Part shown: positions 1 through 64,000 of the stretch, one piece after another
Position numbering within the stretch: position 1 is the first letter of the stretch
Layout: each line of letters opens with the position of its first letter
From: a virus
Virus record (IMG/VR): IMGVR_UViG_3300045988_112819
Length of the DNA: 64,000 nucleotides
Reading direction: 5' to 3' (one strand)
Made by a program: the position numbers and the translations under genes
The notes under the pieces: model-generated
Told to the model about the DNA's origin: nothing
The model's database searches: none
Seen by the model: only the letters and a program-made list of their open reading frames with translations

Positions 1-175
1 CGGTATCAACAATCTTCTTACCATAGGCTTTTGCATATTCTGCATCGCTATAGTAGCGAACATCTCGATGATTCTTAGTATTTGGATGCTCTACAGTAAC
101 ATAATATTTACCATTTTTAATAAAAGGCTCTTCAGTAATGCGCTTATAGGACTGAAAACTAGGTGCAACAGGCAT
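1..175 (-). CDS. hypothetical protein, N-terminal part only (gene continues past the window start); begins MPVAPSFQSYKRITEEPF
   Basis: ATG at 175-173 preceded by AAGGAGG; open to position 1. Confidence 0.5.
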   Translation of the reverse strand, partial: MPVAPSFQSYKRITEEPFIKNGKYYVTVEHPNTKNHRDVRYYSDAEYAKAYGKKIVDT

Positions 176-188
176 AATTTAAACCTCC

Positions 189-410
189 TTAATGATTTTC
201 ACGAAGTTCATCAAGAGCGTTCTTGCTCAAGCTAATGCAGCCTTCGCAATCCCAAGGGATAATCTTTACAGAACATAAATCTTCCTCGCTGTAGTAATCA
301 GTTACATTTCTGAGAGCTTCAGCGAAATTGCTACCGTAGGTAATGCCCTGATAAGTCTCTACCTGATAGTCTTCAAACACTTCTACCTCGTATTCGTAGT
401 AATTCTTCAT
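189..410 (-). CDS. hypothetical small protein (73 aa)
   Basis: ORF track; AAAGGAG RBS 8 nt upstream. Confidence 0.6.
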   Translation of the reverse strand: MKNYYEYEVEVFEDYQVETYQGITYGSNFAEALRNVTDYYSEEDLCSVKIIPWDCEGCISLSKNALDELRENH

Positions 411-470
411 CTTTTGATACTCCTTTCCTCATCTTCTATAATTATTATATCATTATTTTTTAATTTTTGC

Positions 471-505
471 AAAAGAAAAAGAGCTTCCTTGAGGAAGCTC
501 TTTGC
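471..505. terminator. intrinsic terminator hairpin (gagcttcc/ggaagctc) flanked by A- and T-tracts
   Basis: 8-bp GC-containing stem, 4-nt loop, T-run. Confidence 0.55.
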
Positions 506-560
506 TAAGATATAGTAATTTTATATTAACTCCATAAATACTAAGAAGTCATATGTGATT

Positions 561-848
561 CTATCCCAAAAGGAAAAAATTATATCTTCCATATCTGATT
601 CTGTTAAAATTGCGTATTCCATTATGCTTCCTCCTTAATCTTGTAATCATAATCAAGATTTTTAGAAATTCACCAAAATCATATCCAGAGATAATTCTAC
701 CGAATTTTGCGATGAACTGAGTCTGCGCGAAAAGAATAGCAAGTCTATATGCCTCGTCCGCAATCATATACTCAGGAGTTTCTCTATCAATAGGGAAATG
801 GCTCTCGAAAGTTTTATTTTCGATAGAACAAGTAATAATAGCAGTCAT
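561..848 (-). CDS. hypothetical protein (95 aa)
   Basis: ORF track; AAAGGAAG RBS. Confidence 0.5.
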   Translation of the reverse strand: MTAIITCSIENKTFESHFPIDRETPEYMIADEAYRLAILFAQTQFIAKFGRIISGYDFGEFLKILIMITRLRRKHNGIRNFNRIRYGRYNFFLLG

Positions 849-974
849 GGCATTTACTTCCTTTCTTATTTTATATATTTATTATATATTATAATAAATA
901 TAATTGCAACAAGAGAAAAATAGAAGATGCGTGTGTAGGCGAGATTGGAAATTCTCCAATCTCGCCTATTAGGA

Positions 975-1838
975 TTACTTAGATGTGTCTCCAGTGAGGA
1001 AGCTAAAAGGATTAGAGTTGCCCATCATAGCAGAAAGCATAAACATTTTACCCATATCGTTTCCATTATTGCCATCATTATCGCCAAACACCATGCTTGC
1101 CATCATCATAGGCATGAGATTGCCAAAAGGCTGGTCAGGAGAAGGTGCAGTATTACCAAAGTTTACGATAGGCATAATCTTGGTAATAAAGTTAAAGCCA
1201 AAGGGATTAGAGGTGGGAATTACAGTTTTAACCTCAGACTCAAGGATATCAATGACTTCAATGTTACCTTCAGAAATTGACGAAACGAACATGGGGTGAT
1301 GCTTATGGATAATCATGTCGCCTTCCTTTACAGCAGAAGCCGCGACAGGCATACGATATACCATATTCTGGAAGGTGAAAGTAAAACCAGTCACATCAAT
1401 GGTCTGCTTAGAGGTAGGATTATAGGTAAAATATTCACCCTTAGAATTACGAATAGCCAAGCCATAAGGAGAAAAAGCTACCTCGTCCCCGCAAGGGCCG
1501 AAATCAATATTCATATTAAAAGAGGACTTATTGGGCTTAGGATTAGTAGTAGCAGAATTAGAGTCAGTATACATTGCCTTTGTCAACCTTTCTTTCATAA
1601 TACTTACAAAACCGTAAGTGACGGGAATGTCATAGTGAAAAGAGCCACTATTTAAGAGTAGAAAAATTTCTCCACAGCGAATTTTAGTTTCAACTTCAAA
1701 AGTTAATTCTGAGGAAGCTAATTTCTTTAATAGTCTCCACGAATCATACGGAATTTTATAATATCCTGTTTTGGAATTAACTTTTTCTGTATATTTGTCA
1801 AGAATTGGGTCAATATCTTTAGAGCTAAGGCGATACAT
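975..1838 (-). CDS. hypothetical protein (287 aa)
   Basis: ORF track; no TAG. Confidence 0.6.
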   Translation of the reverse strand: MYRLSSKDIDPILDKYTEKVNSKTGYYKIPYDSWRLLKKLASSELTFEVETKIRCGEIFLLLNSGSFHYDIPVTYGFVSIMKERLTKAMYTDSNSATTNPKPNKSSFNMNIDFGPCGDEVAFSPYGLAIRNSKGEYFTYNPTSKQTIDVTGFTFTFQNMVYRMPVAASAVKEGDMIIHKHHPMFVSSISEGNIEVIDILESEVKTVIPTSNPFGFNFITKIMPIVNFGNTAPSPDQPFGNLMPMMMASMVFGDNDGNNGNDMGKMFMLSAMMGNSNPFSFLTGDTSK

Positions 1839-1840
1839 AA

Positions 1841-2377
1841 TTATACCTTCAATCTCTTGTTAAGTTCAGCAATTAGCTCCTCATTAGTAAAGTCACTAAG
1901 AGACTTCTCATTTTTATCAAGAATGAAAGCCGGCGCGAGCCCGCGGCCGTAGTTGTAGTAGGTGTAGTACGCAGACCCATCGCCGTTGACAGAGCAAACG
2001 CGGTTCGAGGCCCAATTATCTTTCTCAGGAGATCCCCAAGGGGTAACAAGCCAGAACCAATTCTTGATATGAGGAGTTAGAATATGATTATACTTGCGAT
2101 ATTCGTCGAAGGTAAGGGGTGCAACAGCGGTATTTAGCGAACCATATCCTTTATATCCATCCATTGCGGTCAGGTCGACATCGCGCGGAATAGCCTTGAT
2201 GCCAGTTTTCTTAAGCCAAGCCTCAGCGCCCTTCCGCAATGTACTCTCTTTATAGTTATTAGAATTTCCAAAAACAAAATCAATTCCTACTTCAAGTGCA
2301 ATTACGAAGGGGTTACCATCAATTTCGTCAAGAACAAGGCACTTTACTCCATTTACAGTAATAGTCTTTCCAATCAT
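1841..2377 (-). CDS. second DGR target: C-type-lectin/FGE-like (DUF1566-like) protein carrying variable repeat VR2 at its C-terminus (...NGDGSAYYTYYNYGRGLAPAF)
   Basis: Start MIGKTITV at 2377 with AAAGGAAG RBS (ORF track begins at an upstream ATG, 2443); C-terminal 82 bp aligns gaplessly to the TR with all 17 mismatches at TR adenines. Confidence 0.6.
   Translation of the reverse strand: MIGKTITVNGVKCLVLDEIDGNPFVIALEVGIDFVFGNSNNYKESTLRKGAEAWLKKTGIKAIPRDVDLTAMDGYKGYGSLNTAVAPLTFDEYRKYNHILTPHIKNWFWLVTPWGSPEKDNWASNRVCSVNGDGSAYYTYYNYGRGLAPAFILDKNEKSLSDFTNEELIAELNKRLKV
1930..2011 (-). repeat. DGR variable repeat 2 (VR2), remote from the cassette
   Basis: Shares the GC-rich ccggcgcgagcccg end with TR/VR1; 17 of 17 differences from TR fall where TR has adenine on the coding strand. 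Confidence 0.7.
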
Positions 2378-2393
2378 ATTTCTCTTCCTTTCT

Positions 2394-2585
2394 TTAATTA
2401 GAATACTCTTCAACCATTTGAGAAAGCATATCAATTTCATCATCTGTTATGTTATCAAAAAAGATACCGTATTTTGCGCAGATTTGAGCTTGCTGAGATG
2501 GATCGTTCATAGTACATGGCTTTGAAGCTAATTCTCGAGCAGCCAGTTCAAAAGCGCCAGTGTATGCGAGAAATGACATATCCAT
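2394..2585 (-). CDS. hypothetical small protein (63 aa)
   Basis: ORF track. Confidence 0.5.
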   Translation of the reverse strand: MDMSFLAYTGAFELAARELASKPCTMNDPSQQAQICAKYGIFFDNITDDEIDMLSQMVEEYSN

Positions 2586-2588
2586 ATT

Positions 2589-3023
2589 TTACACCTCCTC
2601 TATAGAATCAAATTCATGAATTAAGATTGTTCCATCACTGATTTTTTCTGCGCAAACAATGTGTTTAATTTCATATTTATTTTCATCGGGACAGTAAACA
2701 ATATGTCCACTTTTTAGCAAGGAAAGAAAGTCACTTTGATAGTAAGTACGACCTCCGAACTCGTTGCAAATTTTAAGGCGAATTTTATATCCTTCATCAA
2801 CAGAATAGAGATCTCTTACATTATTATCTACTTCGCATAACCGCCAAGTTGGGTCTCCATTATTAATGCTGACTCCAAGAACCGGAATAGGACTATAAGT
2901 TTCTTGAATAGCGAAGAATTTAGCTCTTTTGAGTTGGTCTGTATCAGAAAAGCCGAGGAACTCGCAGATTCTTACAGTGGAGTTCTTATATCCTTCTGAT
3001 TTAATCAGTTCACTAATCTTCAT
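2589..3023 (-). CDS. hypothetical protein (144 aa)
   Basis: ORF track. Confidence 0.6.
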   Translation of the reverse strand: MKISELIKSEGYKNSTVRICEFLGFSDTDQLKRAKFFAIQETYSPIPVLGVSINNGDPTWRLCEVDNNVRDLYSVDEGYKIRLKICNEFGGRTYYQSDFLSLLKSGHIVYCPDENKYEIKHIVCAEKISDGTILIHEFDSIEEV

Positions 3024-3070
3024 AACTTTTACTTCCTTTCCTTAACTTTCTATATATATTATATAATAAT

Positions 3071-3116
3071 TTTATAAAAAAATAAAGACGCTCTTTTAAG
3101 AGCGTCTTTATTTTAC
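3071..3116. terminator. bidirectional intrinsic terminator (aaagacgctc/gagcgtcttt)
   Basis: 10-bp stem flanked by A-run and T-run, immediately downstream of 3113..3625. Confidence 0.7.
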
Positions 3117-3625
3117 TCAAGGTCGATTACATAATTCTCTTGGATAAATGAATCTTCTGGAATATAGATGGTATACTCGGTAGACCATGGCCCAAGCAGG
3201 AAATTCAAAACTGGGTTTTTAAAACGGATTTTGTTTTCTTCTATGTATGGGGCATCATCTGTATTCTTAATATAGGACTGATCTGCCTCAATAGATTTGG
3301 CGGTTATACCTTTATCTGTTTGATACAGGAATGAGTAATAGAGCCCATCTTCTGTATAATAACGGCCTACGTAAGAACTAAAATTATCACTCAAAGCAGT
3401 AATAGAATATGTTTGAGTGGTTTTTGCAGAATAAGTTGCAGGTTCAATAAAAATAACAATACCACAAATTATAATCGCAAATAAGAAAGCGATAAACGCT
3501 GAAAGTACAACTCCGAGAATTGTAGAGAATAGATATTCTGCAAAAGAGTCACAGTCTTTATATAATACTATAAGCGATGTAACCATGAGTAATATAAAGA
3601 ATCCAATAGCTAATGGCATGAGCAA
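3113..3625 (-). CDS. membrane protein with N-terminal transmembrane helices (170 aa)
   Basis: ORF track; hydrophobic segments; AAGAGG RBS. Confidence 0.6.
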   Translation of the reverse strand: MLMPLAIGFFILLMVTSLIVLYKDCDSFAEYLFSTILGVVLSAFIAFLFAIIICGIVIFIEPATYSAKTTQTYSITALSDNFSSYVGRYYTEDGLYYSFLYQTDKGITAKSIEADQSYIKNTDDAPYIEENKIRFKNPVLNFLLGPWSTEYTIYIPEDSFIQENYVIDLE

Positions 3626-3859
3626 AACCTCTTTTCTTATTTATATAAATATATTACCATATTTTATTAAGATACGCAAGTAAATCTTATGGATTATAAC
3701 GAACCGTCATAATTTCTCACGGATGCGGGAATTTTTAGGCAGAGAAATTGGCAATCCCGCGATTTTAAAAACGATCGGAATATCCAAAAGAGGTAAAAAA
3801 TTGAGGTAAAATTTCATATGTACGTAGAGGAAGTATATCATGATTTTGAGAAAAATATT

Positions 3860-3910
3860 TAATTATTGGGTAAAGTTAATTTGTTTTTACCCTTTATTTT
3901 TTATATAATA
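3860..3910 (+). promoter_or_regulatory. candidate promoter (TATATAAT -10) ahead of the 3928 gene, divergent from the 3625 gene
   Basis: AT-rich, TATAAT at 3904-3909, weak -35. Confidence 0.3.
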
Positions 3911-3927
3911 TAAGGAGGTGATAGAAG

Positions 3928-4566
3928 ATGAAAGGAAATATATCAAAAAGATTTCCTGCTAATGTAACTCTTGATACCTAGACTTTTTTAAATGACAAAA
4001 AGATTGATGGAGAATTATATGCGTTATTTTAGGAATTATCATATGTAGATAAAAATGGATAGACAGTGGTTTCAAAAGATGATGTTCCTTCATAGAGTAG
4101 TCTATGTGAGAAACTTGGTATAAAAACTCCAAAGACTTATCGAGCGCACAGAGATTATCTTATAGCTTAGGGTTATATAATTGATGATGAAGAAAATAGG
4201 TAGTATATTCTTCCTATGAAAGAAGATATTTTCTTTATGATTCCATTGTAGACTTTGAGATTTATAAATGATACTTTGAAGGAATAGGTAATCAAGGTTT
4301 ACACATATTTAGGGCAAAGATGGAAATATAAAGAATCTTTAGGCACGGATGAAAAATATAGTTTTACTCTTAAGGAGATCGGTGAACATATAGGATTAAA
4401 AACGGAAGGAAGTTCAAGAAATTCTTAGATTGTGACAAATGCGCTACTGTGTTTGTCAAAGCTTGGTCTTATTGAGTATGAAAATTATTATGATTAGAGT
4501 AATGGTAAACCTGTTCCTCGTATGAGATTAATCTAGTTTAATTTAACTATTGAGCTGAATGGGTAA
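3928..4566 (+). CDS. winged-helix DNA-binding / replication-initiator-like protein (212 aa), 9 in-frame TAG read as sense, TAA stop
   Basis: AAGGAGGTG RBS; continuous only with TAG as sense; HTH-like segment FTLKEIGEHIGLK; followed by iteron-like repeats. Confidence 0.5.
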
Positions 4567-4608
4567 TTTTATCTATCTACGAAAGGGTAATTTTATCTAT
4601 TTACGAGA
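4561..4608. repeat. tandem 24-bp direct repeat x2 (gggtaattttatctatctacgaaa), iteron-like
   Basis: two adjacent near-identical copies at the 3' end of the initiator-like gene. Confidence 0.6.
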
Positions 4609-4660
4609 GGTAAAAAATCATATTATATCTAAATAATATACTAAATAATTTATCTAAGGG

Positions 4661-4704
4661 GACTTCGATATTTCTTCGAGCTTCGCTCTCAGAATATCGA
4701 AGTC
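4661..4704 (+). promoter_or_regulatory. 12-bp perfect inverted repeat (gacttcgatatt / aatatcgaagtc) between the two plus-strand genes
   Basis: seen directly; 20-nt loop. Confidence 0.4.
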
Positions 4705-4739
4705 TCATGTGCCCGCGATTATGATGGAGGATAAAAAAT

Positions 4740-4988
4740 ATGGAAGTATTTAAACCGATTAAGGTAGAAAATTATCAATTCATGAAAAATGGATTAAATT
4801 AGTATGAACCAGTACTGGTTTACTTTAAAGATGATGAAGAAGAAGGTAAGGTATATTTTGTAAAGAATAAATTTGATGATAAGTTAGAAGAATGGATGGA
4901 AGAGAATTTAAAGGTAGAAGGAAGAAGTAGAGTTATAGTAGATAAGTATAGATATCTTTACTCAAGATTTAGAGGATTCTATAGCTAA
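4740..4988 (+). CDS. hypothetical small protein (82 aa), 1 in-frame TAG; possible +1 continuation into a coiled-coil ORF to 5130
   Basis: GGAGG RBS; the downstream frame is open 4912-5130 without a start codon. Confidence 0.4.
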
Positions 4989-5295
4989 GCTAACCGCAGG
5001 AATAACCGATTTAGAAAAACGAATTGAAAAGTTAGAAGAAGGTTTTAGAAAAATCGAATCGAAAAATCGAGGTAAAAGTGGAGAGATGTACGATTTAATG
5101 GAGAAGATAAGATAGATAAACTCTTTGTAAAAGAAGGAATATAGTTATATAGAATAAGAGAAAGAGATAAAATTATAGAAGATTGAAGAAAACTGTGGAA
5201 ATAGTGGGGTTGGGTGCCGATCGGGTCTAGGTACGAACCATCACAACACTCGTCACAACGATCGTAAACCTAGCCTTCCGCGATTATAATATATA

Positions 5296-5340
5296 TAAAA
5301 AAGGAGAGAAGCTACAATACTTCTCTCTCCTTTAATCTTT
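5296..5340. terminator. bidirectional terminator (aggagagaag ... cttctctctcct)
   Basis: imperfect hairpin flanked by A-run and T-run between convergent genes. Confidence 0.55.
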
Positions 5341-5349
5341 TTCCTCTTG

Positions 5350-5805
5350 TTACTTTAAATGCTTCAAAAACTCCATAATACTATCTTCATCAGACTTAGT
5401 ATTACCCTTAACCTGAGGCACACTCTTTGCGAGAGCATCAGAAATAGAGTCAACAGCAATGTCAATTACTTCATCAAGACTCTCTGCATTAACAACTTTA
5501 GCAGAAGTCTTAGCAGTTACAATCATAGCCTGCATAAACTGCTTAATATCATTTGCTGTCCACTTAGGATTGCTCTTGCTATAAACCAATGCAGCCACAC
5601 GACCAACGTCATCCTCAGTGAGAGACAAATCATCAACATTTTCATAGAAAGTAGACTCAATCTCATCCAGAAGAATATCTCGTTCACGGTCTGCGGCGTT
5701 AGCCTCGGAGATTCTATTCATAGCATCAGTAAATGCCTTTGCAATCTCCTCCTGAGTGGAACCATTCTGCATTGCATCACGAATCATAATCTCATAACTA
5801 TTCAT
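5350..5805 (-). CDS. hypothetical acidic protein (151 aa)
   Basis: ORF track; flanked by ccgatcgggtctag direct repeats at 5217 and 5911. Confidence 0.6.
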   Translation of the reverse strand: MNSYEIMIRDAMQNGSTQEEIAKAFTDAMNRISEANAADRERDILLDEIESTFYENVDDLSLTEDDVGRVAALVYSKSNPKWTANDIKQFMQAMIVTAKTSAKVVNAESLDEVIDIAVDSISDALAKSVPQVKGNTKSDEDSIMEFLKHLK

Positions 5806-6335
5806 AATAAGTTCTTTTAGTTAGAAAAAGCGTTATGATGCTTCTTAAACTAAAATCCTCCTTTTCTTTATCTTATATATATTATATTATATTTTTTATA
5901 TATTGTCGAACCGATCGGGTCTAGATAAAAAGATCGCTTTAACGGAATCCCGCGGAAAAGATTTTTCCTTTTCAAATAGTTAGCAACATCTTTGCTATTG
6001 TTTGCTGTATCTTTAATAGTTTTAATTCTGTGAATATCAAGAAATTTTGAGAAAAACGAGGCATTTTTTGCTTATTTTTAAGTAAATTTGTTAGAAAAAC
6101 GCGCATTTTTGCAAGATTTTAGAGGTTTTTTGTTATATTTTGCGATAATAAGAGGTAAAAGATCGCGGGCCGATCGGTTTATCTAGCTAAAATCTCTATT
6201 TTTGAGCTATTTTTATCATAAAATTGTGTTAAACCGATCGGTTTCGCGAAAGAAATCTCTGGTCGTATTTGTTTTTCATAGCTATATCTTTGCTATTGTT
6301 AGTTGTATTTTAGAAAGTTTTGGTACTGTGAATAC

Positions 6336-6363
6336 TTGACAATTTTAAGATTTTTATTATAAA
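6336..6363 (+). promoter_or_regulatory. sigma-70-type promoter (TTGACA-16-TATAAA) inside the repeat region
   Basis: consensus -35 at 6336-6341. Confidence 0.45.
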
Positions 6364-6456
6364 AAATTGGACGAGAGAGCCAATATTGCTGGACCGATCG
6401 GAGCTAGATAAAGAAAGAAGTAAAGTAGGGCCGATCGGTGTTTGGAAGAGGGCGTT

Positions 6457-6591
6457 ATGAATTTTGGGAAAATCGCTATGAAGTTGCGTTATGGCCAAGT
6501 TGCTATGAAAATTTTGCGCTATGGTCCGATCGGGAAAACTCGGGCCGAGTCGCCCGCGACCGGCCCGTCGAGTTTAGGAAATATAAAATAA
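6457..6591 (+). CDS. possible small ORF (44 aa, internally repetitive IAMKLRYGQVAMKILRYG) overlapping the CCGATCGG sites
   Basis: GAGGG RBS 4 nt upstream; could equally be a non-coding transcript. Confidence 0.2.
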   Translation: MNFGKIAMKLRYGQVAMKILRYGPIGKTRAESPATGPSSLGNIK

Positions 6592-6619
6592 AAAGAGAGG
6601 CCAAAGCCTCTCTTTTCTT
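6584..6619. terminator. bidirectional terminator (agagaggc caaa gcctctct)
   Basis: 8-bp stem, A-run and T-run. Confidence 0.65.
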
Positions 6620-6869
6620 AATCCTCGTTTTCTAAATTGATTTCTCCTATACAGTTACACCGTATCGGAGATTCAAAAACAAATTCATCTCCATATCCAA
6701 CGATAGTTATTTCTCCATACTTTTTACAATACTCGTCTATCTTTTCGATTAGACTATTCCAATCTTTCTCTTGCGCTTTTTGTTTTCTAAGTGCCACTTC
6801 TTTATAGGCGGTAGCACTCAACCATTGCAACTCCTCATCATTCAGTTTGTCGAAATCAATATCAACCAT
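6618..6869 (-). CDS. hypothetical protein (83 aa)
   Basis: ORF track; AAAGGAG RBS. Confidence 0.65.
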   Translation of the reverse strand: MVDIDFDKLNDEELQWLSATAYKEVALRKQKAQEKDWNSLIEKIDEYCKKYGEITIVGYGDEFVFESPIRCNCIGEINLENED

Positions 6870-6886
6870 CTAAAAATCTCCTTTCT

Positions 6887-7339
6887 TTAATGAAAAATCT
6901 CAGCCGGAATTTCACTAAAAACTTGCTTAAATTGCTCCATAGTCAGTTCTCTTGCCGCTCTCTCAACCCTTTCTTTTGCCCAGTCGCAAACCATTTCGCA
7001 GGAAATAAATTTAATTTCATACCCAGTAATGGCGTAGATTTTAGGCGACCACTCAAATCTTTTTGTATCAGCCATATTTCCAGTTAAAATCATATATTCG
7101 CCGGTGGCTTGATTTTCTTCTGACTGTTCAACCCAACATTGAACTATATTTTCAACATAGTTTTTTCCAGTTTTAACCGCTTCTTTTTCGGTTCGAGCAT
7201 TGATTAAAAAGGTAGAAAGCATAATATCATCACGAAATGATACCGTAAATTTATAAGGCTTCTTAGAGAAGATGCCCTTGCGACCTTCACACCAAAAGGT
7301 AACTTGAAAATTAACACGAAATTGTTTTAAGCTTTCCAT
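6887..7339 (-). CDS. hypothetical protein (150 aa)
   Basis: ORF track; AGGAG RBS. Confidence 0.65.
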   Translation of the reverse strand: MESLKQFRVNFQVTFWCEGRKGIFSKKPYKFTVSFRDDIMLSTFLINARTEKEAVKTGKNYVENIVQCWVEQSEENQATGEYMILTGNMADTKRFEWSPKIYAITGYEIKFISCEMVCDWAKERVERAARELTMEQFKQVFSEIPAEIFH

Positions 7340-7344
7340 TTCTT

Positions 7345-7485
7345 TTATCTCCTGTAATAATCTTCAATATAAAATTTCATTTCTTTTTCTGTACTTTGTC
7401 CTAATACCGAATAAATAGTGGAAATGTCAAGGCAAGTTCTTTTAATTAAGAAACGAATGATAGAGTTTTTAAGTTTATTCATCAT
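7345..7485 (-). CDS. hypothetical small protein (46 aa)
   Basis: AGGGAGG RBS 7 nt upstream of ATG; below the ORF-track size cutoff. Confidence 0.4.
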   Translation of the reverse strand: MMNKLKNSIIRFLIKRTCLDISTIYSVLGQSTEKEMKFYIEDYYRR

Positions 7486-7511
7486 TTCTTTTACCTCCCT
7501 TCCATGGTTAA

Positions 7512-7540
7512 ATGATACCACATTTTCGGGAGAAAGTCAA
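7512..7540 (-). promoter_or_regulatory. sigma-A promoter TTGACT-17-TATCAT (second TTGACA at 7544-7549)
   Basis: consensus hexamers, exact 17-bp spacer. Confidence 0.6.
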
Positions 7541-7642
7541 GCTGTCAAGTTGCACAAATTTTCAATTCAAAATTGTTGAAAATGACAATAGAAGAAAAAT
7601 TCGGACCGCGGCGCACGCTGGCGGTCCGCTCAAAATTTTGCA

Positions 7643-7676
7643 TAAAAAAAATCTCCCCATAAGGGGAGATTTTTCT
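7643..7676. terminator. intrinsic terminator (atctcccc ataa ggggagat) with A8 / T-run
   Basis: seen directly. Confidence 0.7.
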
Positions 7677-8039
7677 TTAGTTGAGAATTATTGGATATGC
7701 CTTGCGAATAACCACCGTAACCATGGCCGGGGGAGTGTCGCACAAGAAACGGTCATTTCTGATAAAACGACCAATTCCCATATTCTGCCACAAAGTCCGG
7801 TTTACATCCTCGTATCGTAGGGTATTATACTTGGAAAGTTTGATATACCAATCATAGATAAAGGAACCATCTTCCGGCATGGTGTAATCTGGAACCCGCT
7901 TATAATTTCTCGTATGTTCTGCGGCTCTGCGCTCAAGATCATTTGTCGTGCCAATCTTGAGAATATAGCGCCCCTTTTTGTCGATATAATGTCCGACATA
8001 TAGAAACTCTTTTCCCCTTGTCTGTAAACTAACTATAAC
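7677..8039 (-). pseudogene. GIY-YIG nuclease gene without an in-frame start (VGHYIDKKGRYILKIGTTNDLERRAAEH...); the ATG and RBS at 7999 are in the -1 frame, so probably a 1-nt indel at the tcgg(g)aca run or a programmed shift
   Basis: clear GIY-YIG motif in a frame open 8039-7677; ORF track splits it into two overlapping ORFs. Confidence 0.5.
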
Positions 8040-8083
8040 TTACCTCTTTTCTGGTAGGGCCGGGGTAGGCCGACCCTACCACG

Positions 8084-8497
8084 TTATTTCTTCGGTTTAC
8101 GCTTTTGCACAAGCGTCAACTCGAAACTATCCCCACCAATAGAAAACGCAATCTGTCTTTCCTTGTTAGTAATAGACAAGTCAGCGATAGAGAATTGACT
8201 GTTTTTTTCCAAAAACTCTGCCAATTCCGCGATTATACCGCCTTTCGTGGCGTTTGGCTTGCGTTGCCGGGGCGTAAACTTATATGCCGTTGGAGCCTTT
8301 CTCGTCCCCGCATGGGCAAACTTTTGGGCAATTTTTGCCTTATCTGGCGGTAAATCGTATTCAGTCTTTTTATCAGCCTCTACCGCTTTATCATAGGCCA
8401 ATAACTCCGCCTCCTGTTCCGGCGTTAATTGTAGGGCTTTATACCTTGCAATCCGTTCAGCGTCACTAATGCGACTGGATATAATATCACCCCCCAT
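8084..8497 (-). CDS. hypothetical basic protein (about 137 aa; alternative GTG start at 8524 inside the hairpin)
   Basis: ORF track. Confidence 0.55.
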   Translation of the reverse strand: MGGDIISSRISDAERIARYKALQLTPEQEAELLAYDKAVEADKKTEYDLPPDKAKIAQKFAHAGTRKAPTAYKFTPRQRKPNATKGGIIAELAEFLEKNSQFSIADLSITNKERQIAFSIGGDSFELTLVQKRKPKK

Positions 8498-8508
8498 ATT
8501 ATAAGTTA

Positions 8509-8531
8509 GGGCGGGGATTTTCACCCCGCCC
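8509..8531. repeat. hairpin GGGCGGGGATTTTCACCCCGCCC, copy 1 (identical copy at 11149-11173), directly upstream of a gene start
   Basis: exact repeat of a GC-rich stem-loop. Confidence 0.6.
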
Positions 8532-8540
8532 TATACGGGG

Positions 8541-8951
8541 TTACGCCATCTTAAAGAGGGACTTGCCCTTCTTCTCCGTGCAGACCACTCGACCATCGAG
8601 TTTCAACTGCCGCACAAGGGCGGCGACCTTCTGGTTAGAATAGGCCGTCAGATCAGGAATAGCCTTGAAAATTTCCGTGCAGGTTACGCCATCGGTATCG
8701 GCATCCAGACCAGCCAGATACTCCATAATCTGCTCCTTAAAATTCTCGTTCTCCTGCTGGGTGGGAGTCAGCTTCTTGTCACCGCTAGAGCTATTCTTCT
8801 TACGCAGAAGCTCCAGCTCATGGTCAATGACAGTAATAGCCACCTCGATGGTAGTGCCATACTTTACCTCGCCGTCAGTCAAGAGGGCCTTAATGTCCTC
8901 AAAACGCTGGGCCTTAGTAATGCGGATTTTCTTCTCGTCCATAATATACAT
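8541..8951 (-). CDS. hypothetical protein (136 aa; likely start MDEKK at 8942)
   Basis: ORF track. Confidence 0.6.
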   Translation of the reverse strand: MYIMDEKKIRITKAQRFEDIKALLTDGEVKYGTTIEVAITVIDHELELLRKKNSSSGDKKLTPTQQENENFKEQIMEYLAGLDADTDGVTCTEIFKAIPDLTAYSNQKVAALVRQLKLDGRVVCTEKKGKSLFKMA

Positions 8952-8990
8952 CCTTTCTGGTTTTTAGGACTGTCCTTGTCCTTTGATTAT

Positions 8991-9291
8991 ATTGTACCAC
9001 ACTATTTGGTACTTGTCAAGAGGTTTTTCAAACTTTTTTCAAGAACTTTTGCTCTTTACTTGTTTGCCCTCTCAACCTCCCTTATAGTGTAACACACTTT
9101 GGAAAGTTTGTCAAGCCCTTTTTATTTAATTTTCAAGGTGCATTGCCTTGTTTTCTGTACTTATTATAGCACATCTTCAAAGGCTTGTCAAGAGATTCTT
9201 GAAAGATTTTTGAGAAATTCGCTGTCGCTGTCTGCCGTTCGTCTCTCTCACTTTCTGAATGTATTTTACCACAAGCAAAAGCAGATTGCAA
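8991..9291 (-). promoter_or_regulatory. cluster of four tandem consensus sigma-A promoters (P1 8991-9019 TTGACA-17-TACAAT; P2 9086-9114 TTGACA-17-TACACT; P3 9163-9191 TTGACA-17-TATAAT; P4 9263-9291 TTGCAA-17-TAAAAT), each with a TGTGg extended -10
   Basis: four repeated about 30-bp promoter units 77-100 bp apart. Confidence 0.6.
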
Positions 9292-9432
9292 GCGTCAAAT
9301 TGCACAAAAATCGGAATTTTGGGAGAAAGTTTTTGTGCAGAATTTTACACAAAACGGGGTTGAAATTTTTGTGCAACATTTACAAAGAAAAACTCGGGTC
9401 GCGCCGCTCCTGCGCGACCCGCTCAATTTTGT

Positions 9433-9464
9433 ATAAAAAAAAGAGGGGTAAAACCCCTCTTTTA
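9433..9464. terminator. intrinsic terminator (agagggg taaaa cccctct) with A-run / T-run
   Basis: seen directly. Confidence 0.7.
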
Positions 9465-9476
9465 GTCGGAAACGTC

Positions 9477-9626
9477 TTAAATAGCGTTCCCGATTTTGAA
9501 GCACTTGGCCGAAGGCGACCAAAGAGAACCGGCCTTGCGCTTAGCATCAGAACGGGCACGGTCAACATCCTTGCCGACACCCACAAACACATGGCCTGCC
9601 GCAGTCTTAAAATAGAAATTCATCAT
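9477..9626 (-). CDS. hypothetical small protein (49 aa)
   Basis: AAAGGGAG RBS; own promoter and terminator; below ORF-track cutoff. Confidence 0.45.
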   Translation of the reverse strand: MMNFYFKTAAGHVFVGVGKDVDRARSDAKRKAGSLWSPSAKCFKIGNAI

Positions 9627-9674
9627 AACAAAACTCCCTTTCTTTTATGAGGGTTATTCCCTCTTGATGATTAA

Positions 9675-59484: not shown

Positions 59485-60124
59485 AGTTTAATTCAATAGC
59501 TTTTAATTTATCTATTGAATCAGCTTCGAATATCTAAGTTTTATATTCTTGCATTAAATGATATTTGGTATATACCACATTTGAAATAGCTAAACTTAGA
59601 GCGGATAATTGCTCTAAACTCCATGGCACACATTCTTCGTGTCGAGCGTGCCACTCAAGCGTAGGATTTTCTACTTCAGCCGCGAGAGCGACTTGATATT
59701 GATTGAGATTTAAGCTAATCTCAGACTGGTCCTCCTACGTAATTCCATATTCTTTTCCATCAACCCAAGTTAGTGGGTGGGTAGCAAGATACTCTGCGAA
59801 TAGTTTCTTGTTTTCCTCTTGTTTGTCATACTTTGCCTAATCTAAATCAGAAGTGAATGTTCCATCTTCTTGATTATATATTGAATAATTAGGAGTAACA
59901 TCTGATGGAATTGTTTCTATCTCTAATACTTTTACAGCATTAGATTGATTTAATACATCGGCTTTAATTAGAGTATAATGTGTATCTCCATTTGAGCCGA
60001 TAACCCCAGTTCCCTCTTCTTCCTCGCAGGCAACGACAATACCATTTGAGGATTGCAGTTTAATGTAACGTGCTTCTGAAAGAATATCAACTACTACATT
60101 CTCTCTATTTAATAGAATATACAT
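59462..60124 (-). CDS. hypothetical protein (220 aa), 3 TAG; ATG overlaps the RT stop (TAATG)
   Basis: frame continuous past the ORF-track end at a TAG. Confidence 0.45.
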
Positions 60125-61341
60125 TACTTTATTTCAACTCCTTTAAATAATGAACGAAAATAATTGTCCATATCTTGAATTATATAAAAACAAGTTCCTT
60201 TAGAAATATGTGCCCTCCAACCTTGATAGGATTTCTAAATTTCATCTGTTGAAATTTTACCCTCTAACCATAGCGCTTGCATTTTCTTTAACTTTCTGCG
60301 CTAATGAGCCACTTTCTTTTTAAAAGGAATTTGTATTATATGATTAGTGTCTGTGAGATAAAAGTTCCACTTTAAGTATTTTAATGGAGCGTGACGTTTG
60401 CCGTCCGCATGAATAGGAGAGATTCTAGTAATAGTAGTCTTTTTCTTATTCATCTTTAATCCTTGCTTATTTAAGCGAACTTCTATTCTCTTTTCACATT
60501 CGGCTAAGTATTGACTGTCATTGTGGAATAAATATAAATCATCCATATAACGACCATAATACTTAATATGTAACTCTTCTTTGATGAAGTGGTCAATTTC
60601 GTTCAATGCTAGCAATGCGAATAATTGTGATGTTTGACTTCCTAATCCAAGACTTTTATTATCATATTCATAGTATTTGCGGCCAGGCTTAAAATTAGTG
60701 GTACTAATTCTCGTGTATTTGTGCCGTTTACTAATATAATAATCTTTTCCTGGTATGGGAGAGGAATCTTTTGTTAGCTTAAAAGAAAATGTATCTATTA
60801 AATAACAGCATAGTTGATAAATTCTTTTATCTTTTATCAAACGTTTAGCCGCTTTCTTTAAAGATTTATGGTCAATAGAATCAAAATATTTTTGAATATC
60901 AATTCTTAACCCATAAAAATCTTTTCCTAATCCATATTCTCTATGAGCTTGTTGAAGATGTTTCTTTACTCTTTTTAAAGCAAAGTCTATTCCTTTTCCT
61001 CTTAAAGTAGCACAATTATCGTAGATAAATCTAGGAGTTAATTCTGGTAATAAAACTTGTTCACATAACGCATTTTGTACCAGTCTGTCGTTGATATGAC
61101 ACGCTCTTATATCTCTTGGTTTGCCTCGTTCGATTATCGAAAAACAACTAAACACAAGCTATTCGTATTCACACGCTCGCAGATCAGCTTCTGTTTTTAA
61201 AATTGTTTCTATCCTATTCTCTTCAAAATTAATTGTACTATCTTTCCATCGAACGTTTCGGCATACCTTATAAGACGCATCATACATAGTGTCAAAACTA
61301 CAAAAACGCTCGAAAGTAGTATCTTGATTTATTTCAGACAT
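60124..61341 (-). CDS. DGR-type reverse transcriptase (405 aa), 3 in-frame TAG
   Basis: INDRLVQNALC and LRGKGIDFA resemble the Bordetella phage Brt segments FKDRLVQHALC and RPDKGTHAG; motif 4 LGLGSQTSQLFALLALNEIDHF (the SQ hallmark of DGR RTs); motif 5 YGRYMDDLYLF; AAGGAG RBS. Confidence 0.8.
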
Positions 61342-61650
61342 ACTTTCTCCTTATCATGTAGCTATAGTGGTAGCTACTCGAGCTCCACGTCTACAGTCTT
61401 ACTTTATCCACTTTTTCAGTGAAATGGTTAAGTTCTCCTTAGATGAAAAGGCAGATCTACCTATAGTATATTATTCGATAGTTGTAGAGCAAAGCTCTTT
61501 AATGGTCTCTCAATCTCTTCCCCACATAGTGAGTGCAATCCAGAGTAAACCTTAATTAGATGGATAATAATATACTCCGGGGTACTATTTAGGCGTTGCT
61601 CGTTTGCGCTGCTCCGCAGCTTAACTCGCAACATGATAGCTCCATCTAAT

Positions 61651-61750
61651 CCGGCGCGAGCCCGTTGCTGTTGTTGTAGTTGTTGTTGTTCGCAGATCCA
61701 TCGTTGTTGACATTGCAAACGTTGTTCGAGTTGTTGTAGTTACGGGACCG
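61651..61750 (-). repeat. DGR template repeat (TR), 100 bp, AAC-rich on the coding strand (encodes RSRNYNNSNNVCNVNNDGSANNNNYNNSNGLAP)
   Basis: A-specific mismatches against two VRs. Confidence 0.8.
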
Positions 61751-61780: not shown

Positions 61781-62275
61781 TTATCGACCTCTCCTATGGG
61801 TTTTAGGAGCCGAATATCTATGCTCGACTATAAGTTTATCTCTATTTTTTCTATCTTGGATTGATTCTTTTACTTTCTTAGTCAATCTAGCTAGATGTTC
61901 AAAAGATCTTCTTTTCTTTTTGCTGTTCTGAGCATACTAATAAATACATAGGTCGATTTGTCGAAATATACTATCACAATATTCAATCGCTCTATTGTGA
62001 TATTCATTTCTTTTTGTAAGGGTTTCTTTATCTTTTAAGTTTATCCTACACGCCTCATAACAGCAAGCATGTATACCCTTTCCGCATTTAATTATATCGT
62101 ACCCGAACGCTTGAAGAGGTTGACCCTCTCCAAGCAGTCCAGGTTTGCAGATTTGTTTTCCATCCTTATCAAATTCTCTAGGACAAGTTAAGACTAAAAT
62201 GTAGCCAACCAATTCACGGGCTTTATAAAGACAGTCTTGTTTTGATAGGTGTCTATCCTTTACTTTTACAGACAT
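61781..62275 (-). CDS. Avd-like accessory protein (164 aa), 1 TAG, between VR and TR
   Basis: position typical of avd; N-terminal KARELVGYILVLT-CPREF resembles the Avd four-helix-bundle family; otherwise divergent and Cys-rich. Confidence 0.4.
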
Positions 62276-62356: not shown

Positions 62357-64000
62357 TTATCCAATGACGAAAGCCGGCGCGAGCCCGCGGCTGCCGCCGT
62401 AGCGGTTGCTGCTCGCAGATCCATCGCTGCTGACACCGCAAACGTTGACCGAGTTGTTGTAGTAACGGGACCGTTCCCAATACCACATCGTTGAATTCGT
62501 CAACGAACCATTGGCGTTCATCTGGTATTTAACTCTAGTAGAGTTGCTTGTATAGTAACTATAGGCCGTCTAACTTCCTCCAACAGTCCACTCCTAATAA
62601 GAACTAGCATAGCCGCTAGAGCTAGTAAATCCCATCTCACATTCAGAAGGTAGCCAACATTTTGCAGTTGTTTGAACATCCGCAGTATTATTCTAATTAC
62701 CATTACTAGCAGAACTTGTCTTCTTAGTAACAGATTTAATAGAAGCGGTTGCGCTACATCTATTACCAAAATCATTGCACAAGGATTGAGCGGTTGAACC
62801 ATTCCATAACGCGTTACTACCAAATGATGTACTGTTAGGTAAAGTTCCCGCAGTCTGGAAAGTTAATGTTCCAGTTCCATCCTAATCAGCACCAATACAA
62901 ATCATTGTAGCAGCGTTGGCACCAAGTACCGCACTAGAAAGACTTACAAGTTTCTTTTTACCTACACATTTCTTTCTTTCACTGGAAGAAGCCTTAGCTG
63001 CCCAGGTCTTTAATCCAGCCCACCACTTAGCATCACCAGTAGCAGTTTCAGAACCCCACTCCCAATAGCTTGCTGTTACTGTAACAGTCTTGTTACCTGG
63101 AGCAGTATGGTTAGTTCCGGCCGCAACTTTAATAGTAATCGTGGTAGAAGAAATAGCTGTACTGCCATCACCTTTAATAGTAAGAATATTACCACTTAAA
63201 GAGAGGGTAAGACCAGTAACACTAGTTGGAGTATAGCTAATAGCTCCATCTCCCGCGCGAGTAATAGTAACTTTAACGCCAGCACTATAATTATCTCCAT
63301 CAAGAGCAACAGAAGTTGGATTTACGGTTAAACTACCCGCGGCTTTATTAATAACCCAGTTTACATCAAGATTATCGGTTGTCTTATCAGCCCATCTATA
63401 GTTGCTCTTTAGAGTAAATGTAGCTGTATAAGTTCCTGCGTTAGTAGCGGAAGTAGTTCCACCAATCGTCATATAAGTGGTATTGAAATTATTCCAATAA
63501 GAAGTTCCACTTACTGATTGACTATTACCTGTATAGGTAAGATTACTTTTCCAGGTTGGTTTAGCGACAGATTTACGCTCAACAGTTACCGTAAATTTCG
63601 CAGATTGAGTTACTTCATTCTCTGTATAAGAAACAGTAATTTGCTAGCTGCCAACTGTAGTTAAGGATGTTGGTGAGCACGTATAACCTGTGACAGCCGC
63701 GCTTTTACTATCAGAGTAACTCGCTGTAACTACCATTCCTGTTGTTTGAAGGGTGTCGCCATATTCATAGGTCATCTTAGTTGGGTTAGTAGTAACCTAA
63801 ATACTAAGAAGTTTATGAATAACAGTTACCTTCTATGCAGTTTGACAAGTTTCACCGAGTTCTGAATAAGTAATAGTTACTTCAGTAACTCCGTCTGTTA
63901 AAGGACTTGGAGTAACTTGATATCCAGTTACTTCTGCTGTTGTTACAATAACACCATCCATGCCGTAAGATGCGGTAACTACCATTCCAGCAGGATTAAA
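62357..64000 (-). CDS. DGR target: tail-fibre-like protein with repeated Ig-like (Big-type) domains and a C-terminal C-type-lectin-fold VR region (...NVCGVSSDGSASSNRYGGSRGLAPAFVIG); N-terminus lies beyond the window end; at least 6 in-frame TAG
   Basis: frame continuous from the window end through ORF-track 62882..63472 to the TAA at 62357; Big-like repeats VTGYxxxPxxLT...ITVxY. Confidence 0.65.
62374..62473 (-). repeat. DGR variable repeat 1 (VR1), 100 bp, at the 3' end of the target gene
   Basis: 17 of 17 differences from TR occur where TR has adenine on the coding strand. Confidence 0.8.

Follow-up and report, generated by a model that had tools for sequence, protein, structure and literature searches.

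A probable second, nonadjacent target of a gut phage DGR, about 60 kb from its template repeat

Phage DGR targets with a C-type lectin (C-lec) variable domain are classically receptor-binding proteins. Mtd, which forms a trimer at the tail fibre tip, consists of an N-terminal beta-prism and a beta-sandwich domain followed by the C-lec domain. The DNA analysed here is a stretch of 64,000 nucleotides (the window) from a gut phage with a genome of ~145 kb. Its DGR resembles that of Bordetella phage BPP-1 (mtd-avd-TR-brt) in the target-avd-TR-RT gene order, in the adenine-specific mutagenesis, in the GC-rich, IMH-like end of the variable repeat (VR), and in the C-lec variable domain, but it has two targets, no downstream hairpin was recognised, and its Avd is assigned by position only. 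The smaller target differs from Mtd in having neither a beta-prism nor a beta-sandwich domain. Tentaclins (N-terminal C-lec, Ig domains, and an anchoring Ig domain) have the same two domain types as the larger target, the C-lec of which is a DUF6273 domain; however, the order is reversed in the larger target (Big_3 first, DUF6273 last), and the small target has no Ig domain.

Two-target DGRs with such a small protein have already been described; the present case adds a clean example to a known kind of system. The human gut phages nd4 and nd12 have DGRs with two targets, the second being nd4_tgt2 and nd12_tgt2 (Baykov et al. 2023, PMC10743442). The small target matched the 234-aa nd4 protein WRQ08026 in tblastn (27% identity over residues 3 to 176; E 1e-7), and both proteins have a single DUF6273-type C-lec domain, short flanking helices, and a 3' VR that forms a surface beta-hairpin. 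In nd4, nd12, and the phage studied here, VR2 is the shorter of the two repeats, the partner target combines C-lec and Ig domains, and according to our own mapping the VR2 of nd4 is also nonadjacent, at 11.7 kb from TR. However, nd4 and nd12 are myoviruses of 33 to 46 kb, whereas we are dealing with a 145-kb, TAG-recoded, siphovirus-like phage with a spacing of 60 kb and a cassette that would need stop-codon readthrough. Faecalibacterium phages Lelie and CP11 have a large and a small DUF6273 DGR target, and their authors leave the function open (Microbiol Spectr 2024, PMC11792537). As in the window, one TR serves two variable regions, and both targets are DUF6273 proteins with the VR at the C-terminal end of the domain; in tblastn, the window protein matched Lelie orf58 at 31% identity (E 1e-6). 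Lelie and CP11 differ in being temperate, 53-kb phages with the standard code, in which the small target lies ~15 kb from the RT. Many phage-associated DGRs have one adjacent and one nonadjacent target, nearly all within 50 kb, and the targets of one DGR can have different 5' mutagenesis boundaries (Wu et al. 2018, PMC5758913). The 60 kb seen here is slightly past that usual range because the genome is large.

The large, phAss-1-like TAG-recoded gut siphoviruses (PMC10607447) are distantly related to this phage, judging from a virion-protein match (53% identity over part of a 463-aa protein), and the two also have in common genomes of ~135 to 148 kb, the human gut as habitat, and TAG inside late genes; a text search of that paper found no mention of a DGR. 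Beyond what the earlier papers describe, the cassette genes and the VR1 target appear to need TAG-to-Gln readthrough and the VR2 operon is apparently standard-code, and small targets lie away from the cassette, near early or replication-type genes, in several lineages. The features of the window are as follows.

60124..61341, minus strand: DGR reverse transcriptase (RT), 405 aa, with in-frame TAG at 61159-61161, 60301-60303, and 60235-60237
61342..61650, minus strand: noncoding spacer between TR and RT, no ORF
61651..61750, minus strand: template repeat (TR) with 35 adenines, mainly in AAC/AAT codons; the 3' 80 nt (61651-61730) would serve VR2
61781..62275, minus strand: Avd-like accessory gene, 164 aa, basic, one in-frame TAG, named by position only
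62357..64000, minus strand: target gene 1, Big_3 Ig-like repeats and a C-terminal DUF6273 domain, seven in-frame TAG
62374..62473, minus strand: VR1, 100-nt variable repeat at the 3' end of the large target, varying among relatives
975..3023, minus strand: four-gene unit that includes target 2, with a hairpin terminator on each side and no in-frame TAG; its members encode 144 aa (2589-3023), 63 aa (2394-2585), target 2 (1841-2377), and 287 aa (975-1838)
1841..2377, minus strand: target gene 2, 178-aa stand-alone protein with a predicted C-type lectin fold, DUF6273-like, PHROG 9958
1930..2009, minus strand: VR2, 80-nt variable repeat encoding residues 124 to 150 of the small target
1925..1942, minus strand: IMH-like 3' end of VR2, in which GGGCTCGCGCCGG (1930-1942) is common to TR, VR1, and VR2 in the alignment

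The RT matched Pfam RVT_1 (E 1.3e-16) and is a DGR-type RT on the same replicon as VR2. Its best solved relative was the 328-aa reverse transcriptase 8ub7 (E 5e-15), which we take to be the Bordetella bRT. The Avd-like ORF sits between VR1 and TR, the canonical position; it had no Pfam or NCBIfam match, and an exact look-up of a fragment of it also gave no match. The spacer at 61342-61650 is presumed, by analogy with the BPP-1 DGR, to belong to the TR RNA and to serve in priming. Target gene 1 is cut by the window end, with ~20 codons from its start lying beyond position 64000, and has Pfam matches to Big_3 (E 2.7e-9) and DUF6273 (E 3.4e-10). The gene call for target 2 was confirmed: its ATG at 2377 has an RBS ahead of it, and public assemblies have the same gene call of 178 aa.

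A repeat search of the whole window gave exactly three copies, at 1927-2029, 61648-61750, and 62371-62473. When TR 61651-61750 was aligned without gaps to VR1 62374-62473 on the minus strand (100 nt), all 17 mismatches fell on TR adenines (P 6.8e-10). The corresponding alignment of TR 61651-61730 with VR2 1930-2009 (80 nt, 28 of them A in TR) gave 15 mismatches, again all at A (hypergeometric P 5.6e-9), and the A-specific pattern claimed in the first-pass annotation is thus seen once the TR-VR2 mismatches are tabulated from a gapless alignment. The count of 17 mismatches over 82 nt given there, all at TR A, was likewise reproduced when VR2 was widened to 1930-2011. However, positions 2010-2011 belong to a GCC codon that is constant in all relatives, and a mismatch at a non-A base follows directly; we therefore use 80 nt as the working length of VR2. 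For the window and the related loci covered, a third VR was considered and rejected, as each of those loci has the IMH pattern once and the whole window has three repeat copies.

The GC-rich end reported for VR2 is indeed present, as GAAAGCCGGCGCGAGCCCGCGGCCG at 1925-1949. In the window this sequence occurs only there and, with one mismatch, at 62369-62393, with 0 matches expected from shuffles. Directly after GGGCTCGCGCCGG, both VRs continue with CTTTC (1925-1929 at VR2) and TR with ATTAG, so that VR2 has a GC-rich IMH at its 3' end and TR diverges immediately beyond it (IMH*). The C-terminal tail GRGLAPAF had been described as invariant between the two targets, which holds for GLAPAF; the preceding G and R derive from the variable TR codons AGC and AAC, and the likeness of G-R in VR2 to S-R in VR1 is a coincidence. 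On its 5' side, VR2 has just 4 nt of TR homology (CTCG) before the first variable codon. Folding of the DNA downstream of VR1, VR2, and TR gave no common hairpin; VR2 had a z score of -3.1, with a structure that was not kept at VR1. We put the probability that gene 1841-2377 is a genuine second, nonadjacent target of the single DGR of this phage at roughly 0.9, judging from these alignments and from the variation among relatives described below.

By analogy with BPP-1, TR would be transcribed together with the spacer, and the RT and the Avd-like protein would copy it into cDNA, placing random bases opposite template adenines. The cDNA would then take the place of any VR that has the matching GC-rich 3' element (GGGCTCGCGCCGG plus CTTTC). 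Such a machinery would work in trans and could serve VR1 at a distance of 0.7 kb as well as VR2 at 59.7 kb. A shorter tract (80 nt) would be replaced at VR2, and the 5' junction there would have to resolve on very short homology because TR homology ends at CTCG. The product would be the 178-aa single-domain protein with a variable surface beta-hairpin at residues 124 to 150. If so, the locus would document trans-acting mutagenic retrohoming across 60 kb of a large phage genome.

In-frame TAG occurs in 279 of the 12,353 codons of the late block and in 15 of the 1,487 codons of the DGR block, versus 0 of 2,863 in the early block; some late structural genes are also without TAG. At the same RT positions, TAG alternates with CAG or CAA in relatives, and we therefore read TAG as Gln. 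The RT, the Avd-like gene, and the VR1 target would thus require TAG-to-Gln readthrough and, having in-frame TAG, would be made only after suppression is on, late in infection. As Gln codons are absent from the VR2 gene, nothing follows from its being free of TAG, and the argument that it is standard-code draws on its operon partners and on the block around it: the four-gene unit has 10 Gln codons, all CAA or CAG, and would lie as a TAG-free operon among standard-code minus-strand genes. No tRNA, hence no suppressor, was found in the window, and the visible portion of a tRNA array just outside it has no CTA anticodon. Scans of positions 1-6000 for promoters and terminators gave hits no richer than in shuffles, so consensus promoters give no expression timing. 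With the DGR genes apparently in the late TAG=Gln code and one target not, the timing of mutagenesis would be separated from that of target expression. Surveys confined to the RT neighbourhood or to the standard code would miss such targets and split such RTs.

The small target was predicted (AF2; pLDDT 95.7) to be a single C-type-lectin-fold domain, with the VR2 residues 124 to 150 modelled as a surface beta-hairpin near the C terminus. It is followed by a C-terminal helix (LSxFTTEELLxELxRR) that is conserved across 40 relatives. The protein matched PHROG 9958 (E 1.2e-32) and had tblastn matches in nd4, nd12, Lelie, and FP_Brigit; by homology, the single C-lec domain, the 3' VR, and the C-terminal helix it is of the nd4_tgt2 type. 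The 12 AAY codons of VR2 (15 residues each) and three further codons (4 each) allow ~8e15 variants. The first-pass annotation had correctly recognised a small C-type lectin fold and had likened it to FGE/DUF1566, an assignment that did not stand: neither FGE-sulfatase (PF03781) nor DUF1566 (PF07603) matched by sequence, and the protein is DUF6273-like instead. Its Pfam DUF6273 (PF19789) match reached 15.4 bits (E 0.017) over only the C-terminal quarter of the profile, below the gathering threshold of 23.5 bits. However, 7 of 40 family members passed E<0.001 (best, 1.3e-13), some close variants carry a precomputed PF19789 match, and the best viral matches by fold are DUF6273 proteins. The small target is therefore a divergent DUF6273 relative and not a scored member. 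A profile search of PDB sequences returned only noise.

The two targets had been called unrelated. Their architectures do differ (one has Big_3 Ig repeats and C-lec, the other only C-lec), but both variable domains are of the DUF6273 C-lec type; the difference is one of architecture and not of variable-domain type. The kinship of the two domains rests on Pfam DUF6273 and on the fold and not on direct alignment, as hhalign of the small-target family profile with the C-terminal domain of the VR1 target, VR excluded, gave no significant match. A BLASTP match between the two targets is mostly due to the VR itself.

Homologues of the small target in other phages are likewise distant from the cassette. 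The nd4 homologue, 11.7 kb from TR, is beside genes annotated as DNA polymerase III alpha, SSB, and DnaC; the FP_Brigit homologue lies 41 kb away, after HTH regulators and before exonuclease/RecT; and that of an IMG/VR group lies 8.8 kb from the cassette. These three were paired with a TR, while the Lelie homologue, past a resolvase and among unannotated genes, was placed relative to the RT gene (~15 kb). Small targets thus sit away from the cassette, in or beside early or replication-type genes, in several phage lineages. As the family is away from structural genes in each lineage mapped, the default assumption that phage DGR targets are receptor-binding tail proteins is open to question. We consider it about an even chance that the small protein, instead of forming a tail-fibre tip, acts as a soluble module for ligand binding whose expression does not depend on the virion-gene programme.

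A virion-attached receptor-binding module, docked through the C-terminal helix in an Mtd-like manner, is a serious competitor, which we rate at somewhat below even odds. The conserved helix could be the docking element, and the authors who described the homologous tgt2 proteins propose Mtd-like receptor binding for them (PMC10743442). What speaks against virion attachment is the location of the gene away from structural genes in the four lineages mapped, the TAG-free operon here, when nearly all virion genes are TAG-recoded, and the predicted lack of an N-terminal attachment domain such as the Mtd beta-prism. Gene position by itself does not prove a nonvirion function. The wider proposal that stand-alone C-lec proteins (PHROG 9958/divergent DUF6273) form a conserved class of nonvirion DGR targets in four otherwise unrelated gut Firmicutes phage lineages is, in our opinion, rather doubtful. 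Under it, the DGR would diversify at once an Ig-fibre adhesin of the particle and a soluble intracellular binder made independently of the virion programme. Such a hypervariable binder might, for instance, inhibit or sense a host factor that itself varies, such as a protein of host defence, and phage DGR biology would extend past receptor binding.

Related genomes show how VR2 varies. Among 15 distinct VR2 sequences, all 28 TR-A columns varied, versus 4 of the 52 non-A columns (Fisher P 1e-17); 231 of the 242 mismatch cells were at A, and 9 of the remaining 11 were accounted for by TR alleles. The small-target gene was found as 359 protein clusters, and among 110 cluster representatives the entropy peaks were at residues 125, 126, 129, 131, 132, 137 to 140, 142, 143, and 145. 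These residues correspond to TR AAC/AAT codons, and more than 100 clusters differ almost solely there. TR itself is identical or differs by 1 to 2 nt in ~20 related contigs, whereas the VRs differ everywhere at A sites. One metagenome scan for the VR2 flank gave no more than two contigs of 2 kb. Three non-A TR alleles inside the IMH-like element (GGGCTC, GGGCTG, and GGACTG) recur in VR1 and VR2 of the same genome: TR, VR1, and VR2 agree in the window and in four IMG/VR contigs holding TR and VR2 (two of the four carry identical VR2), including contig 080502 with the rare GGACTG allele. In a sister species with an RT of 76% and a small target of 47% identity, its own diverged TR differs from its small target at 17 positions, all of them A, over a distance of ~57 kb. 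Besides the window, at least five other assemblies have the two loci on one contig, contrary to what would be expected if VR2 and the RT were on unrelated replicons. The proposal of a second target of the same TR and RT on one replicon is thus upheld by the A-specific pattern, by variation confined to TR-A positions, and by the alleles common to TR and VR2. The evidence is unusually clean in that TR alleles reach both targets and the arrangement is retained in the sister species.

Could VR2 nevertheless be a decayed relic, that is, an old repeat copy or a former target that receives no further TR input? Its homology to TR is shorter than that of VR1 (80 versus 100 nt), and assemblies break at VR1 and not at VR2, which could mean less within-sample variation at VR2. 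However, every TR-A column varies in relatives while the rest of the gene is ~96% invariant, recent TR alleles are found copied into VR2, and the TR-VR2 pairing is maintained in a sister species with a different TR; linkage by descent without transfer is opposed by the A-specific hypervariation. Decay is therefore very improbable, and comparison between genomes, the source of all the activity evidence, indicates that VR2 is an active target and not a relic.

It is equally improbable that VR2 is served by another TR and RT in the ~80 kb of genome outside the window. The window covers only 44% of the genome, and two contigs of 146 and 114 kb have VR2 with no exact TR match, but the 146-kb contig starts 209 nt upstream of an RT fragment, so that TR was lost at the contig end, and two TR-specific patterns each match once per IMG/VR contig (contigs of up to 133 kb). 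Moreover, the window TR accounts for every non-A base of VR2, and its alleles track VR2. In the complete 144,663-bp contig, we expect no further copies of GGRCTSGCGCCRGCTTTC and no second RT or TR.

Ordinary recombination or gene conversion between the target genes, with no reverse transcription, could maintain similarity between VR1 and VR2, which agree in the GC-rich end and in 12 of the 21 bases that follow. This is even harder to credit, since in a single genome many TR-A positions distinguish VR1 from VR2 and each differs from TR only at A; conversion between VRs would make them alike and would neither give A-specific scatter nor keep TR invariant. A single DGR acting on two targets remains the preferred reading.

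A megablast search of window positions 1-8000 against GenBank phages gave no match, and positions 1-12377 are 100% identical to part of the 144,663-bp contig. Many assemblies of this phage are 143 to 149 kb in length, and the target loci are separated by 59.7 kb one way and ~85 kb the other, which contradicts the suggestion that they lie only a few kb apart across the window junction. The underlying idea of the window as an almost entire, circularly permuted genome is favoured only by the minus-strand orientation of the genes at its two ends, and it can be dismissed, as the window is part of a longer contig of a larger genome and its ends lead to different surroundings. Outside position 1 there are further small genes and the tRNA array, whereas divergently oriented resolvase-like genes lie upstream of target 1, beyond 64000. 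The partial gene at 1..175, for which a common locus with the truncated target at 64000 had been considered, is unrelated to that target and forms the start of an ordinary 160-aa protein.

A repeat search of the whole window returned a single repeat family, present exactly three times (1927-2029, 61648-61750, and 62371-62473). The GC-rich repeat end has two occurrences, one at 1925-1949 and a second, with a single mismatch, at 62369-62393; none would be expected by chance. Gapless comparison of the three copies on the minus strand gave the following assignment.

Template repeat (TR) and variable repeats (VR) of the diversity-generating retroelement (DGR)
61651-61750, minus strand: TR, the adenine-rich middle copy
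62374-62473, minus strand: VR1, 17 differences from TR in 100 nt, 17/17 at TR adenines
1930-2009, minus strand: VR2, 15 differences from TR in 80 nt, 15/15 at TR adenines

One TR serves two VRs, with adenine-specific diversification at both. The TR segment opposite VR2 contains 28 adenines in 80 nt, and the probability that all mismatches fall on adenines by chance is 5.6e-9 for VR2 and 6.8e-10 for VR1. The 17 mismatches over 82 nt reported for VR2 in the first-pass annotation were reproduced exactly when positions 2010-2011 were counted in. Those positions lie in a GCC codon that relatives keep unchanged, and a non-adenine mismatch follows; the working VR2 was therefore set at 80 nt. On the upstream side, TR-VR2 homology extends just 4 nt (CTCG) beyond the first variable codon (residue 125), which is nearly as variable as the rest (2.6 bits), and just past the GC-rich element the TR (ATTAG) departs from both VRs (CTTTC).

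The activity of VR2 was judged from natural variation among related genomes. The exact 178-aa protein encoded by target 2, the small gene carrying VR2 (1841-2377, minus strand), is present on a 144,663-bp human-gut contig, and the exact sequence of its neighbor was found on many related contigs. In nine related contigs, the target protein is near-identical outside residues 124 to 146 and scrambled within them. A large protein database holds 359 clusters of the 178-aa protein, with up to 573 members per cluster. Among 110 cluster representatives of 178 aa, entropy is high only at residues 125, 126, 129, 131, 132, 137 to 140, 142, 143, and 145, positions that coincide exactly with the AAC/AAT codons in the TR, and residues 133, 141, and 144 (TR codons GAT, TAC, and AGC) are less variable. 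Across 15 distinct VR2 sequences, 28/28 columns opposite TR adenines vary versus 4/52 others (Fisher P, 1e-17); 231 of 242 mismatch cells are at adenines, and TR alleles explain 9 of the 11 non-adenine cells. The TR itself is the same or differs by 1 to 2 nt across ~20 contigs, and its rare non-adenine alleles recur in VRs of the same genome.

Non-adenine TR alleles in the window and in related contigs and loci
GGGCTC: the window and contig 091188
GGGCTG: contigs 073130 and 081499 (identical VR2 in both); also VR1 of loci L016 and L024
GGACTG: contig 080502, in TR, VR1, and VR2
GCGCCAG: locus L019, in TR and VR1

Copying of non-adenine TR alleles into both VRs reaches through the shared GC-rich element at least as far as its penultimate base (GCGCCAG). 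Judged from such variation and from the sister species described below, information flows directionally from TR to VR2, a coupling that has been kept over evolutionary time. The proposal that VR2 is a second target of the same TR is thus strongly supported, both as an observation and in its core interpretation, by adenine-only mismatches, variation confined to TR adenines, and matched TR alleles.

The same arrangement was found in a sister species (IMG/VR contig IMGVR_UViG_3300029305_001775, 144,334 bp), whose RT and small target are 76% and 47% identical, respectively, to those of the window. Its TR (locus L099, 798-883) has many non-adenine differences from that of the window, the GC-rich end included. 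Its small target, ~57 kb from its TR and RT, has 17 mismatches to its own TR, 17/17 at adenines, and VR2 there follows the diverged TR and GC-rich end.

By analogy with BPP-1, RNA covering the TR and spacer would be reverse transcribed by the RT together with the Avd-like protein, the cDNA would home to any DNA with an IMH-like (GC-rich) end, and the 5' junction would be resolved by short homology, at VR2 a microhomology of 4 to 6 nt.

Assemblies often break at VR1 or at the TR (L015 at 4576-4751; starts of L017, L020, L022, L026, L031, L035, L094, L095, and L123). The first base of many contigs, some of 96 to 146 kb, lies within tens of bases of the 3' end of VR1 or a short way upstream of the RT, and one HMP scaffold contains two overlapping VR1 variants linked by an N, which suggests within-sample heterogeneity of VR1. 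VR2 lies uninterrupted mid-contig in its contigs.

Target 2 has no signal peptide or transmembrane segment that is obvious by eye. It matches PHROG 9958 (E, 1.2e-32), and its Pfam DUF6273 match is subthreshold (15.4 bits versus a cutoff of 23.5), with 7 of 40 relatives passing at E < 0.001. An exhaustive search returned 635 representative relatives, mostly stand-alone proteins of 170 to 230 aa. A confident AF2 model built from 40 relatives (pLDDT, 95.7; pTM, 0.86) had DUF6273 proteins as its top viral fold matches, and in it VR2 encodes a beta-hairpin and one more strand. In some VR2 alleles the variable tract has lost or gained whole codons (locus L014, 2209-2742; protein clusters of 174 to 179 aa), so hairpin length is occasionally altered by diversification. 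VR2 is followed by a linker and then a helix, LSDFTNEELIAELNKRL, kept across the family. This stretch (residues 151 to 178; 1841-1930), with the amphipathic helix LSxFTTEELLxELxRR, occurs family-wide, FP_Brigit included, has no counterpart in the VR1 target, and may be a docking or oligomerization element. Target 1 consists of Big_3 Ig-like repeats followed by a C-terminal DUF6273 domain (E, 3.4e-10). The two targets have a variable domain of the same type and nothing else in common; no direct alignment between them was obtained outside the VR. The earlier description of target 2 as a small C-type-lectin (C-lec) protein therefore stands, but its assignment to FGE/DUF1566 gives way to a DUF6273-like C-lec fold, as in target 1.

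The cassette runs on the minus strand in the order target 1, Avd-like ORF, TR, spacer, and RT.

Protein-coding and spacer elements of the cassette
64000 down to 62357, minus strand: target 1, seven in-frame TAG codons
62275 to 61781, minus strand: Avd-like ORF, one in-frame TAG
309 nt between TR and RT, minus strand: spacer
61341 to 60124, minus strand: RT, three in-frame TAG codons

In-frame TAG by gene block
20.6-59 kb, plus strand: late block, 279 in 12,353 codons
DGR block: 15 in 1,487 codons
975-19521, minus strand: block with the VR2 gene, 0 in 2,863 codons

None of target 1, the Avd-like ORF, and the RT is open under the standard code. Readthrough of TAG yields an RVT_1 protein of 405 aa for the RT, and its best solved relative is 8ub7, a 328-aa reverse transcriptase (E, 5e-15) that we take to be the Bordetella DGR enzyme bRT. 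At its three TAG positions, CAG or CAA interchanges with TAG in related phage RTs (59 to 90% identical), and TAG is therefore read as glutamine in this phage. All 10 glutamine codons of the VR2 operon are CAA or CAG; the probability of this would be ~0.001 if TAG were used as often as in the late block and ~0.05 if it were used as often as in the DGR block. On codon usage, the RT, Avd-like protein, and target 1 would be translatable only under TAG suppression, and the VR2 operon would be independent of it. No tRNA gene was found in the window. A tRNA array begins ~5 kb outside the window, past position 1 and on the downstream side of the VR2 operon (L001, 17725-20424). It comprises 10 or more genes, Ile-TAT, Leu, Asn, Asp, Ala, Glu, and Met among them; the examined part of it contained no CTA suppressor, and in some relatives GIY-YIG or PDDEXK genes are inserted into the array. 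Directly downstream of the RT are two minus-strand genes (59026-59484 and 59462-60124), both with in-frame TAG, one encoding a membrane protein (PF06541, ABC_trans_CmpB; E, 2e-11) and the other DUF4376-like. An exact RT fragment directly after a 716-aa Fer4/Pyr_redox_2 bacterial-type gene (L018; ENA contig_1993, 3,227 bp) is most likely a chimeric assembly.

Searches with tblastn matched target 2 to GenBank phages FP_Brigit (35% identity, full length), nd4, nd12, Lelie, and FP_Toutatis, of which FP_Brigit, Lelie, and FP_Toutatis are Faecalibacterium phages.

Placement of small targets in relatives
nd4: 11.7 kb from TR, adjoining annotated DNA polymerase III alpha, SSB, and DnaC
FP_Brigit: 41 kb from TR, directly after HTH regulators and before exonuclease/RecT; VR2 differences at adenines only
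Lelie: ~15 kb from the RT gene, beyond a resolvase; neighbors unannotated
IMG/VR group (L060 and L061): 8.8 kb from TR

No RT or TR was found within the examined flanks (up to 10 kb per side) in 39 of 41 IMG/VR family-member loci. Lelie orf58 is a "small DGR target" by position and homology, and the text available for that phage describes one large and one small DUF6273 target of unclear function (PMC11792537). FP_Brigit AUV56625.1, a 203-aa "hypothetical protein," is a second DGR target (MG711465.1, 3948-4559; TR near 45406; VR1 near 47471); in the text available for this phage, the Hoc-like target is the only one described. An earlier survey of phage-associated DGRs had already listed targets that are not adjacent to the cassette, mostly no more than 50 kb away, and had noted that the targets of a single DGR can differ in their 5' boundaries (PMC5758913).

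The nd4 match is nd4_tgt2 (234 aa), which belongs to a DGR with two targets and is the second of them; it has a single DUF6273 C-lec domain between short helices and was proposed to be an Mtd-like receptor binder (available portions of PMC10743442). We put at about 50% the probability that the small protein of the window is a soluble binder whose expression is separate from the virion program; a virion-docked receptor-binding module is a serious, if less favored, alternative. Since the closest systems have already been described, the novelty of the finding is modest. It usefully adds a TAG-recoded cassette, a reach of 60 kb, a TR-VR2 coupling conserved in the sister species, and the recurrence of small targets away from structural genes, an off-cassette placement on which the accessible parts of PMC10743442 and PMC11792537 do not dwell.

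Window positions 1-12377 are base-for-base identical to part of ERZ501415 NODE_16 (144,663 bp), and assemblies of this phage cluster at 143 to 149 kb, with the target 2 gene at varying offsets. We take the genome to be ~145 kb and either circular or terminally redundant, so that the window makes up ~44% of it. TR and VR2 are separated by 59,721 nt one way and ~85 kb the other, which refutes the suggestion that the targets lie only a few kb apart across the window ends. Nor do the ends form one locus: a 160-aa protein begins in the partial gene at 1..175 and ends 308 nt past the window, and target 1 starts ~20 codons past 64000, preceded by genes in the opposite orientation, resolvase fragments among them. 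Both loci do share one replicon: they occur together in the window and also in five or more other contigs, always 56 to 58 kb apart. The resolvase (PF00239) fragments, divergent from target 1 at ~820-1290 of L015 and L016, probably make up a single serine recombinase gene, interrupted by TAG, beside the DGR.

The small-gene block is punctuated jointly by two kinds of minus-strand elements. Repeats at 8990-9200, 13053-13091, 13373-13407, and 16907-16945 have the form TTGACAAAC-N14-TGTGGTACAATA, a predicted strong Firmicutes-type sigma-70 promoter with an extended -10, and GC-rich hairpins followed by T-runs (7571-7635, 9364-9428, 10825-10889, and 15387-15451) are likely terminators. On the plus strand, a tape-measure-sized ORF of 2,852 codons (37193-45748) contains 99 in-frame TAG codons and is comparable in size to the 3,149-aa tape-measure protein reported for phAss-1 (PMC10607447).
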